DNA of 32,000 nucleotides from Candidatus Thorarchaeota archaeon (lineage in GTDB: Archaea; Asgardarchaeota; Thorarchaeia; Thorarchaeales; Thorarchaeaceae): NCBI GenBank assembly GCA_008080745.1, contig SHMX01000009.1, positions 42,381-74,380 on the forward strand, read 5' to 3'. The notes under the pieces were generated by a model, which was not told the DNA's origin, did not search any database, and saw only the letters and a list, made by a program, of their open reading frames with translations. A program made the position numbers and the translations under genes. Shown here piece after piece: positions 1,799 to 5,863 of the stretch. How positions within the stretch are numbered: position 1 is the first letter of the stretch; each line of letters starts with the position of its first letter.

Positions 1799-2173
1799 TT
1801 ATAGTTCAAGCTTAGCTTCGTTCTTCCATAGGCCGTGAATATTACAGTATGATGTTGCCATAATGGTACCTGGTTTTTCAGTCTTGAATACAAATACTGC
1901 ATATGGCTCAGAATACATCTTGCTGGTGTCTGCACCTTGTGTTGACTCACCATGATGGTCAAAGGTGTGGTAGCCTATCTCAACAGGAAACTTCTCTCCC
2001 TCGGGTAGGAAGAATGCATCAGCCCATTTAATATGATGTGCGGTTGTATTGGGGTGTGGTATTTCTTTTCCTACTGAAATAGTAATGTGAAACAAATTAT
2101 CTCCTTTCTTCTCGATTTCAATAACGGGTACGTGTTTTTCATTTTTCCAATCATCTGTTTGAATCCAGCTCAT
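1799..2173 (-). CDS. sor: Superoxide reductase (neelaredoxin / class II SORL desulfoferrodoxin-like)
   Basis: EKHVP, HPNTTAHHIKW and SYCNIHGLW iron-site motifs. Confidence 0.92.
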   Translation of the reverse strand: MSWIQTDDWKNEKHVPVIEIEKKGDNLFHITISVGKEIPHPNTTAHHIKWADAFFLPEGEKFPVEIGYHTFDHHGESTQGADTSKMYSEPYAVFVFKTEKPGTIMATSYCNIHGLWKNEAKLEL

Positions 2174-2265
2174 CTCTCTTTCCTCTTTATTTCGACGATG
2201 GGCAAGTAATTAACTGCCCATCAAGAAATACTCAGCGTATGTTAAAATTCTTCGCTTGTCTGACT

Positions 2266-3762
2266 TTATTTTGATATTTCTTCTAAGTGTGAGAGAGTCC
2301 ATCTTCCTCTATCAGTCAAATCATAGTACTTTCGAACTCTCTTTTCATGAGATCTCATTTCTTTTGTTTCTACTATTAGTCCCCCTCTGGCTAACTCACT
2401 AAGATGCTGATATACACTAGGAATTCTAACTTGTATTCCATATTTCTCATCCAACTGCTTCCATATTTCGTATCCGTAATTCTCATTCTTGGTGAGAATT
2501 CGTAATATGCAAACCTTTGTTCTTCCCAATTTTGTTGTGTATTTTCGCCCCTCTAATCTACTCAGAAGATGTACCAAATCTTTCCGTCCCTTCACAAAAG
2601 ATTCTGCAATCTCTGGAGACTTAAGACCACTGCCTGTTATTATGCAGATTACCGTATCAGTAGGGTCAATAATACCCTGGTCTACAAGTTTTTTGAGGGC
2701 AGCTATAGTGGTTGCAGATGCAGGCTCAGCAAAAACGCCTTCAAGTTTAGCCAACCGCCTTACACTATCTAATATCTCACTGTCCATAACAGTGATTCCC
2801 CTCCCTTTGGATTCTCTAAGTGCACGTAATGCTTTACTGCCACATACCGGATTGGCAACACCAATATCCATTGCCAATTTTGGTTTGCCTGTCGAGGGCT
2901 TGACCTCCGTATCTCCCCTTCGATATGCGTCTACTATTGGTGAAATCCCTTTGACCTGCGTTCCGATGAGTCGAGGAAGATTCCCCTCAATAAGACCCAA
3001 TTCTTGGAACTCTATGAGGCCTTTCCATATCATTGAAAGATTTCCTCCACTTCCCATAGGTGTGAGTATCCAGTCTGGTAGTTTCCATTCCATTTGTTCA
3101 CAGATATCAAATATCATGGTCTTTGTTCCTTCTAGGAAGGGAGGATTGTTGGAAGTTATGGGATGATATGTTGGTTCTCGTTGCATGGCGAGTGAGATAG
3201 CTTCTTCTCTAGTCCTTACAATCTCAACATCTGCACCATAAGCAAGTATTTGGTAGAATTTACCTATGTCAACTCGTCCTCTTTGTGCCATGAATACCTT
3301 TGCATCAATTGCTGCTTTCGCTGCGTATGCTACTACAGAAGCTGCAAGATTTCCCGTTGAACCACAACAAATCTTGGTTCTATTGTTCTCTAAGGACACG
3401 GATACCTCAACACTACTTCCTCTATCCAAAAATGAACCTGTGGGATTTGTGGTTTCATTTTTCAAAAGAAGATTTCGAACACCTATTTCAGATGAGAGCA
3501 AATTGGCTGGATGCAGATAGGTATTGCCTTCTCCTAATGAGATGATATGTTTCTGATCCATTATGGGTAACAGCTCAGCATATTTCCAGACCCCACTAAC
3601 TCTTTTCTTCAATGCCTTTTTGTCAAGTTTCCCCTTTAGAATCTCAAGATCATATTCTATTTCGAGAATCTCTCCACATTTATTGCAGGTTCTTAGAGAT
3701 GATGTGCTTGGGTGTGTTCTTCCACACTTTGAACATGCAAGACCTCTTACAAAAGATGCCAT
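2266..3762 (-). CDS. Threonine-synthase-fold protein lacking the catalytic Lys, fused to a C-terminal PadR-type winged HTH
   Basis: N-terminal CxxC..CxxC ribbon; NPTGSFLDRG (canonical SFKDRG), STGNLAAS, EPASA and TGSGLK motifs; C-terminal NYGYEIW..SVYQHL..L...G..RKYYDLTDRG. ATG at 3762 follows a GGTGA RBS (ORF track start is 3771). Confidence 0.88.
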   Translation of the reverse strand: MASFVRGLACSKCGRTHPSTSSLRTCNKCGEILEIEYDLEILKGKLDKKALKKRVSGVWKYAELLPIMDQKHIISLGEGNTYLHPANLLSSEIGVRNLLLKNETTNPTGSFLDRGSSVEVSVSLENNRTKICCGSTGNLAASVVAYAAKAAIDAKVFMAQRGRVDIGKFYQILAYGADVEIVRTREEAISLAMQREPTYHPITSNNPPFLEGTKTMIFDICEQMEWKLPDWILTPMGSGGNLSMIWKGLIEFQELGLIEGNLPRLIGTQVKGISPIVDAYRRGDTEVKPSTGKPKLAMDIGVANPVCGSKALRALRESKGRGITVMDSEILDSVRRLAKLEGVFAEPASATTIAALKKLVDQGIIDPTDTVICIITGSGLKSPEIAESFVKGRKDLVHLLSRLEGRKYTTKLGRTKVCILRILTKNENYGYEIWKQLDEKYGIQVRIPSVYQHLSELARGGLIVETKEMRSHEKRVRKYYDLTDRGRWTLSHLEEISK

Positions 3763-3840
3763 CGTTCTCACCTATATATAGGCCTAGGGTTATATATTCC
3801 TAATCAATCGCAAGCTCGTCCAGTATTGGTGGTATTTCCT

Positions 3841-4428
3841 ATGGAAAAAATAAGTTCGAGCACAAAGAATTCAACAGTCTACATTGCCTTATTAGCAATA
3901 TTTACTGCCCTTACTGCGGTCATAACTGCAGTAGTTGCAATCCCTTTTCCTACAACATCCGGATATCTTAATATTGGAGATATGATGGTCATGTTGAGTG
4001 GAATGCTTCTCGGTCCTGTTGGTGGATTGATTGCTGGAGGAGTGGGTTCAGGCATGGCTGATGTTGCTTTGGGATATTTGCCCTTTGCCCCAATTACGCT
4101 GATAGTAAAGGGGTTTGAGGGTTTCATTGTTGGATTGTTTAGTCTAAAATCGAAAAAGGCACAAAACCTCACAAGAATGGATGCAATTGGAATCGTCCTA
4201 GCCGCAATAGCAATGCTCCTAGGATACTTTGTATTTGAGAGTATATTATTCGGGCCAGTTGCAGCTTGGGAGGAGTTAGTTAGTATCAACTGGATTCAAG
4301 TTACTGTTGGCGGAATATTTACAGGATTATTTGGTCCGAAGATTCGTTCATATTTGCATAATGCCTCAGTAACATTGGCAGAACCAGGCGAATATGAAGA
4401 GCTAGAACTTTCAGAAATCGACGCTTGA
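3841..4428 (+). CDS. ECF transporter S-component (vitamin-binding membrane subunit; substrate uncertain)
   Basis: GYLNIGD..LLGP.GG.IAGGVGSGMADV.LGY..FAPITLIVKG.EG signature; about 5-6 TM. Confidence 0.88.
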   Translation: MEKISSSTKNSTVYIALLAIFTALTAVITAVVAIPFPTTSGYLNIGDMMVMLSGMLLGPVGGLIAGGVGSGMADVALGYLPFAPITLIVKGFEGFIVGLFSLKSKKAQNLTRMDAIGIVLAAIAMLLGYFVFESILFGPVAAWEELVSINWIQVTVGGIFTGLFGPKIRSYLHNASVTLAEPGEYEELELSEIDA

Positions 4429-4585
4429 AAACTGAATCGTTTTAGATATCGGAATTTGCAGTTTTCAAGATACTTCTGGAATGAAGATAGAAAACGAATA
4501 TGTTCTTTCAGAATCGTTTTTTAATAATCAAGTATTGGACTATCTTGGCTTACTATCAGAGTCGAATTGATTGGAAGGTCTTGAA

Positions 4586-5863
4586 ATGGACAGAGAAAAG
4601 TTACGAATTGATGCCAAACAACTCGAAGCCATAAACGATTTTCTCCTGAATGAAGATAATCCTTTGATTACTGATTTATTGGAGGTAATTGAAAAGTATG
4701 GTGGTGTTGATGAAATTAATGGAAAAGCCGAGAAAGCAAGAAAGTTAGAGAATCTCCTAGCTATGTTAGAAGAGAAGGATTCTCCCTATTTAGAGGATCT
4801 TAGATGGCTTCAAGAACAACGTGACAATGGTGCTTTCATTAGTATTTCCGATTATAGACGAAATGTTCTGGGCGATAAAGCTGACTCGGTGGAATTTGAT
4901 GAAAGTTTTGCAGTCACCCTTGAGATTAGCGCCTGTCAATATTTCCCATGGCTCATTGAACAAGCTAAACAGGCAATTGAAAATCAAGAACTTATGCCTG
5001 CCCGCTTTATCCGCGTTAGAAAGATGAAGGAACAAACAGAAGATGATGATATTATTGCTTTTGCTGCTGCTATGCAGATTTTAGGAGCTTCATATGTCGA
5101 AACTTTGGATACAAAAGGTACGGCCCCTGGACCTGATGGGGCACCTGTGAACATTCACCTCGGTGGTCCTGAGACCATCACTGGTTATTTTGGTGGAGTT
5201 GGTATGCCAAATGATTTTGTCATCAGGTGGGCAGATGAATTCCTTCACTACTATACCACTTATGGTGTAAAACAGGTTTTGAATATCAACCCTGGTAGTG
5301 TCCTTATCGGGTATATGATGCACAAAATGGGCATCGATATAGAGTTCAAAATATCGGTCTATATGGGAAATGATAATCCTTATGCATGTCTGTGGACTCT
5401 ACTAACTGCCAAGTTATTCAGTCGTCCTGATGGAACCACATCTCTGATTGGTTTCAACCTATCTAACAGTGTTGACAATACCACTATTGAACTTGCATCC
5501 TTCATTCGGGGTGAGTTTGGTTTTGAAGATGTAGTACGACTAGAACATCATATCACTGAAACCTACAAGTCCATTGTCAGACAGCCATATGATAGGACCG
5601 AAGAACTCGTGGAGCTTGCGGATCATGTTAAGAACATAAGTGCCAAACACGAGGGTGGCATTCCTGAAATTGATGTCACACGTGAGCATCCAAGTGATAT
5701 TCTCGATTACTTCCGTGATAAGAGTGAAATTGTAGAGTCTGGTGATATGCCTAAGATGCTGCGAAACTATCTTGACAAGCATCATGCTCTCAATCGCACT
5801 GCAGAAGAGTTGACAAAGAAAGGTCTTACCTTTATCGCAGCTCCAAAGCTGCACAAGAAATAG
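4586..5863 (+). CDS. Conserved-looking hypothetical protein (about 425 aa, enzyme-like)
   Basis: Long ORF with dense Gly/His/Asp motifs (DTKGT, NIHLGGPETITGYFGG, KISVYMGNDN, EHHITE, AKHEGG); family not identified. Confidence 0.8.
   Translation: MDREKLRIDAKQLEAINDFLLNEDNPLITDLLEVIEKYGGVDEINGKAEKARKLENLLAMLEEKDSPYLEDLRWLQEQRDNGAFISISDYRRNVLGDKADSVEFDESFAVTLEISACQYFPWLIEQAKQAIENQELMPARFIRVRKMKEQTEDDDIIAFAAAMQILGASYVETLDTKGTAPGPDGAPVNIHLGGPETITGYFGGVGMPNDFVIRWADEFLHYYTTYGVKQVLNINPGSVLIGYMMHKMGIDIEFKISVYMGNDNPYACLWTLLTAKLFSRPDGTTSLIGFNLSNSVDNTTIELASFIRGEFGFEDVVRLEHHITETYKSIVRQPYDRTEELVELADHVKNISAKHEGGIPEIDVTREHPSDILDYFRDKSEIVESGDMPKMLRNYLDKHHALNRTAEELTKKGLTFIAAPKLHKK

Follow-up and report, generated by a model that had tools for sequence, protein, structure and literature searches.

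A threonine synthase fold without its cofactor lysine, fused to a PadR winged helix, is a probable vitamin B6-sensing repressor of Asgard archaea

A gene on the minus strand of a 32,000-nucleotide stretch of DNA from a Candidatus Thorarchaeota archaeon (GenBank assembly GCA_008080745.1, contig SHMX01000009.1, positions 42,381 to 74,380; the whole of this stretch is called the window below) encodes a fusion protein in which the fold of threonine synthase (ThrC), a pyridoxal 5'-phosphate (PLP) enzyme, is joined to a C-terminal PadR-type winged helix-turn-helix (wHTH). Considering that: (i) the lysine that forms the Schiff base with PLP is lost in the fused family, (ii) the gene is divergent from one for an energy-coupling factor (ECF) S-component of a family that includes B6 importers, with a candidate operator between the two, and (iii) relatives of the gene stand beside the PLP synthase genes pdxS and pdxT in two separate lineages; we think it likely that the protein is no threonine synthase, but a one-component, dimeric and non-catalytic repressor that senses B6/PLP. 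The identity of the ligand, the binding to DNA, the direction of regulation and the loss of catalysis are things that we infer from sequence. The coordinates of all features are collected in Table 1.

The Schiff-base lysine is replaced by leucine

The motif that reads SFKDRG in threonine synthases is found in the fusion protein as NPTGSFLDRG (residues 106-115). An exchange of the PLP lysine for leucine had been reported in a first-pass annotation of this DNA, made from the letters alone, and a direct reading of the codon confirms it, with TTG at 3429-3427 encoding Leu112. When four solved threonine synthases were aligned with residues 58-389 of the fusion protein, at 34-38% identity, the Schiff-base lysine of each faced Leu112.

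The same annotation judged a single base-call error unlikely at this codon, a view that is borne out from two sides. Among the 120 closest database proteins (46-66% identity) the position is occupied by Ile in 101 and by Leu in 19, and two separately assembled Logan contigs from marine-sediment runs, with depths of 48x and 128x, match 2.3 kb letter for letter. These contigs speak against an assembly slip at the lysine codon; both are probably from the source samples, hence without independence from the GenBank record.

The wHTH that had been placed at the C-terminus is also present. Residues 419-490 match the Pfam PadR model (PF03551) with an E-value of 2.6e-16 and 59.8 bits, well above the cut-off of 27, and K416, Y451 and H453 of this domain are invariant in a 66-sequence alignment.

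Lysine loss goes with the winged helix across the family

Both Pfam domains are found in all of the 120 closest proteins, whose named sources are Loki-, Thor-, Hod-, Sif- and Promethearchaeota and Bathyarchaeia, and around the lysine position the residues N-P-T-G-x-F and D-R-G are invariant or nearly so. The same architecture with the same replacement of lysine extends to hundreds of proteins at 35-66% identity, with both domains strongly conserved.

From an exhaustive search among representatives of 50%-identity clusters 150 top hits were taken, and 148 rows entered a FastTree phylogeny of the enzyme domain alone, the root of which is not established. Two sister clades of fused proteins (support 81) were obtained. 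Subfamily A comprises 55 rows (support 99), of which 53 have the HTH, and none of these 53 has the lysine; the alignment shows no HTH for the other two, P0152 and P0174, of which P0174 is a 362-aa fragment. Subfamily B, with eight rows (support 100) from Odin-, Baldr-, Hel- and Lokiarchaeota and Bathyarchaeia, has a shorter winged helix and the motif NPTNSF-[R/K/S]-DRA, and the lysine is still present in two of its eight representatives. Fused proteins have I, L, V, M, T, N or F at the lysine position, or R, K or S in the smaller group, as against the full-length unfused relatives in the tree set, which keep the lysine in 84 of 84 cases. The survey for co-occurrence of lysine loss and HTH that the first-pass annotation had proposed is therefore positive. 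As far as these sequences tell, lysine loss is a fixed trait of a whole HTH-fused clade across Asgard archaea and Bathyarchaeia, and one fusion followed by loss of the lysine would be the most economical history for a tree with no established root.

The presumed cofactor site is kept and the presumed substrate-phosphate site is not

Pocket positions were counted in 58 diverse members of subfamily A, mapped by alignment onto the numbering of Thermus thermophilus ThrC (1UIM). D62 and R63 are invariant, the F60 position is Phe in 56 members, and G86, N87 and T317 are kept in 57, 54 and 57, respectively; in the glycine loop G187 is kept in 57 and the A189 position is Gly in all 58, and the Glu-Pro of the EPAS motif is also retained. 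At these near-invariant positions the window protein has F111, D113, R114, G137, N138, G237, G239, T376 and E346. Other positions have changed: the K61 position is never Lys, the T88 position is Leu in 46 members, and the R160 position is Phe, Leu, Tyr or Ile in 55 and Arg in none, while the N154 and S155 positions are variable and the N188 position is Ser, Asn or Thr. The fusion protein itself has L139, T203, F209 and S238 in place of T88, N154, R160 and N188. We take these last four residues of the T. thermophilus enzyme to bind the phosphate of O-phosphohomoserine, and N87, the glycine loop and T317 to contact the ring, O3', N1 and phosphate of PLP; both assignments are presumptions, unconfirmed in the literature searched.

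A substitute for the missing lysine was sought in the sensor domain and none was found. No lysine is specific to the subfamily, and a replacement by one of the conserved lysines (101, 168, 214, 247 and 381) was rejected, as each of them is equally conserved in canonical ThrC. Two residues, Tyr170 and Asp299, are specific to subfamily A. The sensor domain thus appears to be non-catalytic. Mutants of PLP enzymes that lack the Schiff-base lysine keep non-covalent cofactor binding, and a lysine-less pocket is therefore compatible with the reversible binding of PLP or of pyridoxamine 5'-phosphate (PMP).

Threonine synthesis does not need the fusion protein, since two other ThrC-like genes of the same genome keep the lysine. 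These paralogues (L002, 1273-2586, on contig C2; L003, 1321-2505, on contig C1) have the motifs NPSGSFKDRP and NPTQSFKDRG, fall in different clades of the tree and, like the fusion protein, start with clustered Cys pairs.

Subfamily B keeps Lys or Arg at the critical position and subfamily A has Ile or Leu, a hydrophobic substrate site, Tyr170 and Asp299; we lean, if only slightly, towards the view that the family records the steps by which an enzyme was converted into a sensor.

The fusion protein is predicted to form a symmetric homodimer

An AlphaFold2 model built on the 66-sequence alignment has a predicted local distance difference test (pLDDT) score of 91.7 and a predicted template modelling (pTM) score of 0.79, with pLDDT falling to about 50-64 over residues 381-410 and to its minimum, below 50, at 405-410. 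The wHTH is modelled as helices 414-425, 430-441 and 447-459, a beta wing at 463-482 and a terminal helix at 484-497. In a Foldseek search the top ten matches are led by ThrC structures, with target template modelling scores (TM-scores) of 0.80-0.88 (2zsj, 0.88).

The homodimer prediction scored 0.82, against 0.01 for the best of three controls. Of proteins with known structures, 20 of 30 homodimers and 1 of 23 monomers attained this mark. Three runs had at least 76% of contacts in common, with a partner pLDDT of at least 82, and the predicted interface is symmetric, formed by residues 76-181 and 334-344 and by linker helices within 378-404 (including helices 383-390 and 394-403). The fusion protein is thus predicted to dimerise via its enzyme-fold domain, a result that may reflect likeness to ThrC dimers already solved.

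The fused gene adjoins genes for presumed B6 uptake or for PLP synthesis

The first-pass annotation had placed an ECF S-component gene (3826/3841-4428) divergent from the fused gene and a superoxide reductase gene, sor (1799-2173, minus strand), downstream of it, and both are there. The S-component matches PF07155 with 118.4 bits against a cut-off of 26.7 (E 4.3e-34), and its sole solved relative is HmpT (4HZU chain S, E 1.9e-11); none of the other solved S-components, RibU, FolT and ThiT among them, matched it at E up to 1. Hydroxymethylpyrimidine was the cargo first predicted for HmpT-type S-components, and the substrate of HmpT was identified as pyridoxamine (PMC4860826). The B6 importers PdxU and PdxU2/HmpT belong to COG4720/PF07155 (PMC9997740). 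When the pocket residues of HmpT (E41, H84, Q87, Y120, N140 and Q143) were compared with those of the S-component (D52, K95, E98, Y134, N155 and Q158), three of the six were identical, two conservative and one changed.

Gene context was compared at 21 regulator loci, picked by hand to span families and not at random. An S-component homologue adjoins the fused gene at 16 of them, mostly head-to-head and in many Asgard families; at two of these arrangements, L023 and L031, three further genes lie downstream of the S-component, and the one scanned in L023 is an ABC ATPase. Within the window's own family, all 22 regulator copies adjoin a high-scoring PF07155 gene (21 genomes in which both positions were listed). 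The synteny survey that the first-pass annotation called for thus finds the pairing conserved across Asgard classes. Two other loci of the 21, from separate lineages that have PLP synthase, link the regulator to B6 synthesis: pdxS and then pdxT follow the fused gene in L017, starting 44 bp after it, and in L018 the fused gene is head-to-head with pdxS-pdxT.

Neither pdxS nor pdxJ was found in the 98%-complete genome of the window, and pdxS was found in none of the 61 genomes of its family; gene absence from metagenome-assembled genomes is never certain, and the loci L034 and L035 nonetheless show intact junctions without the regulator. It follows that the organism probably has to import its B6. 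The genome has two EcfT genes. On this gene content the family seems to be obligately auxotrophic for B6, with a vitamer kinase yet to be found, and a whole Asgard family that probably lacks PLP synthase and imports its B6 bears on the syntrophic lifestyle of these organisms and on attempts to culture them.

As to the ligand, the first-pass annotation had proposed PLP/B6 vitamers or phospho-amino acids. Its B6 part gains support from the adjacency to pdxST elsewhere and from the lack of pdxS and pdxJ in this genome; its phospho-amino acid part is less likely, the positions aligned with the substrate-phosphate site of ThrC being hydrophobic.

A candidate operator lies between the divergent genes

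The divergent intergenic region holds a 24-bp inverted repeat, ATATATAGG-N6-CCTATATAT in consensus, which ends 11 nt upstream of the regulator ATG. GGTGG is found 9-13 nt upstream of the S-component ATG (3841), and AGGTGA 6 nt upstream of that of the regulator. Upstream regions of the other loci were scanned for the repeat with spacers of 4 to 8 allowed and scored on 18 consensus positions. In 16 of 17 subfamily-A loci the best match has a spacer of exactly 6, with 13-18 of the 18 positions matched, and the repeat ends 11-43 nt before the start codon (87 nt in one). Both pdxST loci carry it; the subfamily-B loci (0 of 6) and L027 gave background matches only.

The window site is the only one with at least 15 of 18 positions in the 3.16-Mb genome. 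Mononucleotide-shuffled genomes hold about 6 sites each at this threshold (about 0.7 at 16 of 18 or better), so that the match in a single genome is weak and the weight falls on position, fixed spacing and recurrence across loci.

The proximal arm together with the adjoining AGG forms a perfect palindrome, CCTATATATAGG, which occurs at 31 sites in 28 of the 61 family genomes, 29 of them at the regulator/S-component locus, as against 10 sites for a reversed control pattern. Among the genomes in both samples, 17 of the 21 that have the regulator carry the exact 12-mer and none of the 17 that lack the regulator does, counts that are no independent trials, as the family genomes are related. Two of the four regulator genomes without the exact 12-mer were checked, and the element is present with a non-palindromic core. 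The same division is seen inside genera, as in g9, where the palindrome is confined to the two genomes with a regulator. In regulator-less relatives sor is followed directly by the S-component gene, with a single TATA-like box and no repeat, and this speaks for the repeat being more than the TATA box of the importer. From its sequence, the natural reading of the element would be a candidate operator that overlaps two divergent core promoters.

Two loci from sister genera can be set against window positions 1799-4428. In L034 (2641-3761) and L035 (2038-3671) the S-component and the gene for a 430-aa protein that follows it are kept, and the regulator and the repeat are both gone. The sor gene is kept in L034 and was not seen in L035, and a rubrerythrin-like gene is also in place in L034. 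These loci are a clean presence/absence polymorphism of regulator plus operator.

Other copies of the element

The genome has a second copy of CCTATATATAGG (C7:32394-32405; L032, 2895-2906), which was rejected as a regulon member because it has no second arm and fails the full 24-bp scan. This copy lies about 200-270 bp upstream of a 472-aa open reading frame (ORF) with a PALP domain and a TrpB2-like N-terminus, and it directly follows three ATGTACA repeats that resemble a separate operator.

One relative (G131) has two regulator/S-component pairs and a third full bipartite element (L033, 2920-2961; C14:60949), between an HTH_10-domain gene and a GNAT acetyltransferase gene and next to an Asp/Glu racemase gene; this third element possibly marks a further member of the regulon there.

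Proposed mechanism and alternative explanations

In the mechanism that we propose, the former cofactor site would bind a B6 vitamer, most likely PLP or PMP, reversibly and non-covalently, and the enzyme-fold dimer would present its two C-terminal PadR winged helices to the 24-bp inverted repeat. By binding, the dimer would keep the transcription machinery from assembling at either of the two divergent promoters. With B6 plentiful, the liganded dimer would sit on its site and keep the importer and its own gene off; with B6 scarce, it would leave the DNA. In PLP-making relatives the regulator would act on pdxST instead. The logic of vitamin homeostasis favours the ligand as co-repressor, the alternative being a PadR-like induction by ligand. 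On balance we also think, with slight preference, that Archaea have a B6 homeostasis regulator of their own, in which a PLP enzyme turned lysine-less, non-covalent sensor of PLP or a vitamer is combined with PadR.

Several points weigh against this reading. The B6 ligand is deduced from gene context only, and the roles of ThrC residues in cofactor versus substrate-phosphate binding are presumed ones, taken over from T. thermophilus ThrC. The genome yielded no canonical pyridoxal kinase, and in it a 22-bit Phos_pyr_kin match at C3:326804-327097 was the only one, leaving a gap in the proposed salvage route from imported vitamer to PLP. For the S-component, no characterised equivalog is reached at its cut-off, and folate-type and riboflavin-type models match it weakly; at one of the six pocket positions it has Lys where HmpT has His, and PF07155, which carries a riboflavin name, probably holds several specificities. 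Neither an S-component nor pdxST is found beside the regulator in 3 of the 21 loci (L021, L022 and L027), and about 20 of 43 other sampled family genomes keep the S-component without the regulator, which is therefore dispensable. Lastly, the arms of the repeat resemble archaeal TATA boxes, and part of their conservation could be promoter function.

A rival reading is the same regulator with a ligand other than B6, be it an amino acid or phospho-amino acid as a legacy of ThrC chemistry, the thiamine precursor hydroxymethylpyrimidine or riboflavin/FMN, which the S-component would import. The sensor domain descends from an amino-acid enzyme, HmpT-type carriers were at first assigned to hydroxymethylpyrimidine (PMC4860826), PF07155 is named for riboflavin, and the S-component is below every characterised equivalog cut-off with its folate-type and riboflavin-type matches weak. 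We nevertheless consider such a ligand unlikely, since the adjacency of pdxS-pdxT with the same repeat in two separate lineages would be hard to explain, the structures of RibU, FolT and ThiT are unmatched by the S-component, and in the sensor domain the positions aligned with cofactor contacts are conserved and those aligned with the substrate phosphate are hydrophobic.

Still less probable, in our estimate, is a bifunctional enzyme-regulator in the manner of RbkR or BirA, with another base in place of the lysine or with PLP-independent chemistry. Archaeal RbkR does join an active riboflavin kinase to a wHTH (PMC5397151), the ThrC fold is very well preserved here (pLDDT and TM-scores as above) with many active-site positions invariant, and subfamily B retains the lysine in two of its eight representatives. 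Against this stand the absence of the Schiff-base lysine from all 53 fused representatives of subfamily A and all 120 close homologues, the lack of any new conserved lysine, the replacement of positions aligned with substrate binding and the two intact ThrC paralogues in the genome.

An artefact, either an error of sequencing or assembly in the codon for the lysine or a thrC pseudogene in decay that became joined to a neighbouring regulator gene by chance, has nothing in its favour except the prior expectation of errors in single records, and is already refuted by an intact reading frame, two identical deep assemblies and the recurrence of architecture and lysine replacement in hundreds of proteins.

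The fused family is annotated as threonine synthase

That automated annotation would call the gene thrC had been foreseen, and rightly so: the fusion protein reaches 195.2 bits with TIGR00260 'thrC' against a cut-off of 167.1, and all named homologues carry the label 'threonine synthase' in public records. With NF006050 it scores 300.4, slightly below the cut-off of 303. Only one model in the library, NF004170 / PRK05638 'threonine synthase' (442 positions), covers both the enzyme fold and a C-terminal winged helix; its profile positions 3-441 are matched, with both domains covered, at 295 bits against a cut-off of 421, so that the fusion protein is not a member, and no control genome reaches this cut-off. 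The fused architecture is thus already in the databases, under the name of an enzyme, and this name very probably assigns to subfamily A a catalytic function that it lacks. Of the marks of a threonine synthase, the fusion protein has the fold-type-II domain and the score with the family hidden Markov model, and it lacks the SFKDRG lysine and the residues presumed to bind the substrate phosphate.

A search for related loci with the fusion protein alone returned only two distant bacterial ThrC loci. The literature search gave no description of the fused family or of any archaeal B6 regulator, with most subscription journals outside its reach. The label is likely to be a systematic annotation error, in that hundreds of Asgard and Bathyarchaeia 'threonine synthase' proteins are probably no enzymes, and such mislabelled proteins distort metabolic reconstructions of threonine synthesis.

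Neighbouring genes

The sor gene was considered as a target of the regulator and rejected: it is downstream of it in some lineages only and stays beside the S-component in regulator-less relatives.

The gene for the 430-aa protein, downstream of the S-component, has the same position in L006, L009, L010, L034, L035 and L037, and follows the S-component also in relatives without the regulator; it is possibly co-transcribed with the S-component. The protein has at least 8000 homologues at E below 1e-5, and across Loki-, Thor- and Sifarchaeia its homologues share 76-89% identity, far above the conservation of its neighbours. In its secondary structure strands and helices take turns; its AlphaFold2 model has a pLDDT of only 53.5, and an Atlas search gave no match. 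As no canonical pyridoxal kinase was found, a role of this protein in B6 salvage is worth testing.

Genes for GNAT acetyltransferases recur by the regulator/S-component pair in loci of Hod-, Thor- and Sifarchaeia (L007, 4010-4270; L008, 2947-3438 and 6507-7007; L009, 4302-4904), and in L009 the GNAT gene sits between the S-component and the regulator.

Table 1. Features of the regulator locus, in window coordinates
Feature	Position	Strand	Basis
Gene for the ThrC-fold/PadR fusion protein	2266..3762	-	ORF without internal stops, 498 aa; stop codon 2266-2268; Pfam PALP and PadR
N-terminal four-cysteine Zn-ribbon (C10, C13, C26, C29)	3676..3735	-	Cys at least 90% conserved in the 66-sequence alignment
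Fold-type-II PLP-enzyme (threonine synthase) domain, residues 74-377, presumed ligand sensor	2632..3543	-	Pfam PF00291 (PALP), E 4.4e-59
TTG codon, Leu112, at the PLP Schiff-base lysine position	3427..3429	-	read directly; aligns with Lys61 of T. thermophilus ThrC
Linker from sensor domain to wHTH, residues 385-412	2527..2610	-	low pLDDT in the AlphaFold2 model
C-terminal PadR-type wHTH, residues 414-497	2272..2523	-	Pfam PF03551 match
Divergent intergenic region with both promoters	3763..3840	.	sequence read
Candidate operator, 24-bp inverted repeat, arms 3774-3782 and 3789-3797	3774..3797	.	ATATATAGG-N6-CCTATATAT consensus, 9-6-9
12-bp perfect palindrome CCTATATATAGG, proximal arm plus AGG	3771..3782	.	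two sites in the whole genome
ECF S-component gene, PdxU/HmpT family (PF07155 / COG4720), presumed target	3826..4428, likely start ATG 3841	+	PF07155
Gene for a conserved 430-aa protein, downstream of the S-component	4571..5863	+	no Pfam or NCBIfam match

Comparison with known systems

By sequence and fold the nearest characterised relatives of the fusion protein are the threonine synthases (EC 4.2.3.1; 2ZSJ, 2D1F, 6CGQ and 1UIM; TIGR00260, PRK08197), with which it shares the fold and most framework motifs at 34-38% identity. The bacterial enzymes resemble it at target TM-scores of 0.84-0.88 and in the predicted dimer via the enzyme-fold domain, and its N-terminal Zn-ribbon resembles that of the archaeal ThrC paralogues. 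It differs from them in having Leu112 and a fused wHTH, in the gain of Tyr170 and Asp299, and in a context of B6 genes rather than threonine genes.

Canonical PadR proteins have an N-terminal wHTH and C-terminal helices of their own for dimerisation and ligand binding. The fusion protein is like PadR and LmrR in its winged helix, which scores above the cut-off, in its candidate inverted-repeat target and in a likely autoregulation; it is unlike them in that its wHTH is C-terminal and that the ThrC-fold domain is the one predicted to dimerise and to sense.

Archaea lack the riboswitch solution that bacteria have for vitamin control (PMC5397151). ThiR, a ThiN-like domain with a DNA-binding domain, resembles the fusion protein in design. 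RbkR, in which an archaeal riboflavin kinase carries a wHTH, regulates ribU and the synthesis of riboflavin (PMC5397151). Both RbkR and the fusion protein join a vitamin-related enzyme fold to a wHTH, with palindromic sites, candidate ones for the fusion protein, at genes for synthesis and for ECF-type uptake, and both are found in Archaea. They are unlike in vitamin, enzyme fold and HTH family; RbkR is still an active kinase, and the sensor of the fusion protein comes from a cofactor-using enzyme and not from an enzyme of the vitamin pathway.

Closest in presumed function is bacterial PdxR, of the MocR regulators. The reconstructed PdxR regulon includes pdxST and pdxU, characterised members of the MocR subfamily bind PLP, and the subfamily is reported to be missing from Archaea (PMC5320631). 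The genes of this regulon are those found beside the fused family, and both systems would be one-component regulators with a PLP-enzyme fold as sensor and dimer-type repeat operators, a candidate one in our case. The parts differ: fold-type II with a C-terminal PadR domain in the fusion protein, fold-type I with an N-terminal GntR domain in MocR. The Schiff-base lysine, lost in the former, is retained in MocR regulators, which bind PLP through it. If the proposed function is true, the fused family takes the place that MocR/PdxR leaves vacant in Archaea, offers a natural scaffold protein for reading the level of free B6, and is a clear case of a cofactor-dependent enzyme recruited as sensor of its own cofactor, convergent with PdxR. 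The fusion protein is no member of the PdxR family; it would be its archaeal functional analogue, assembled from unrelated parts.

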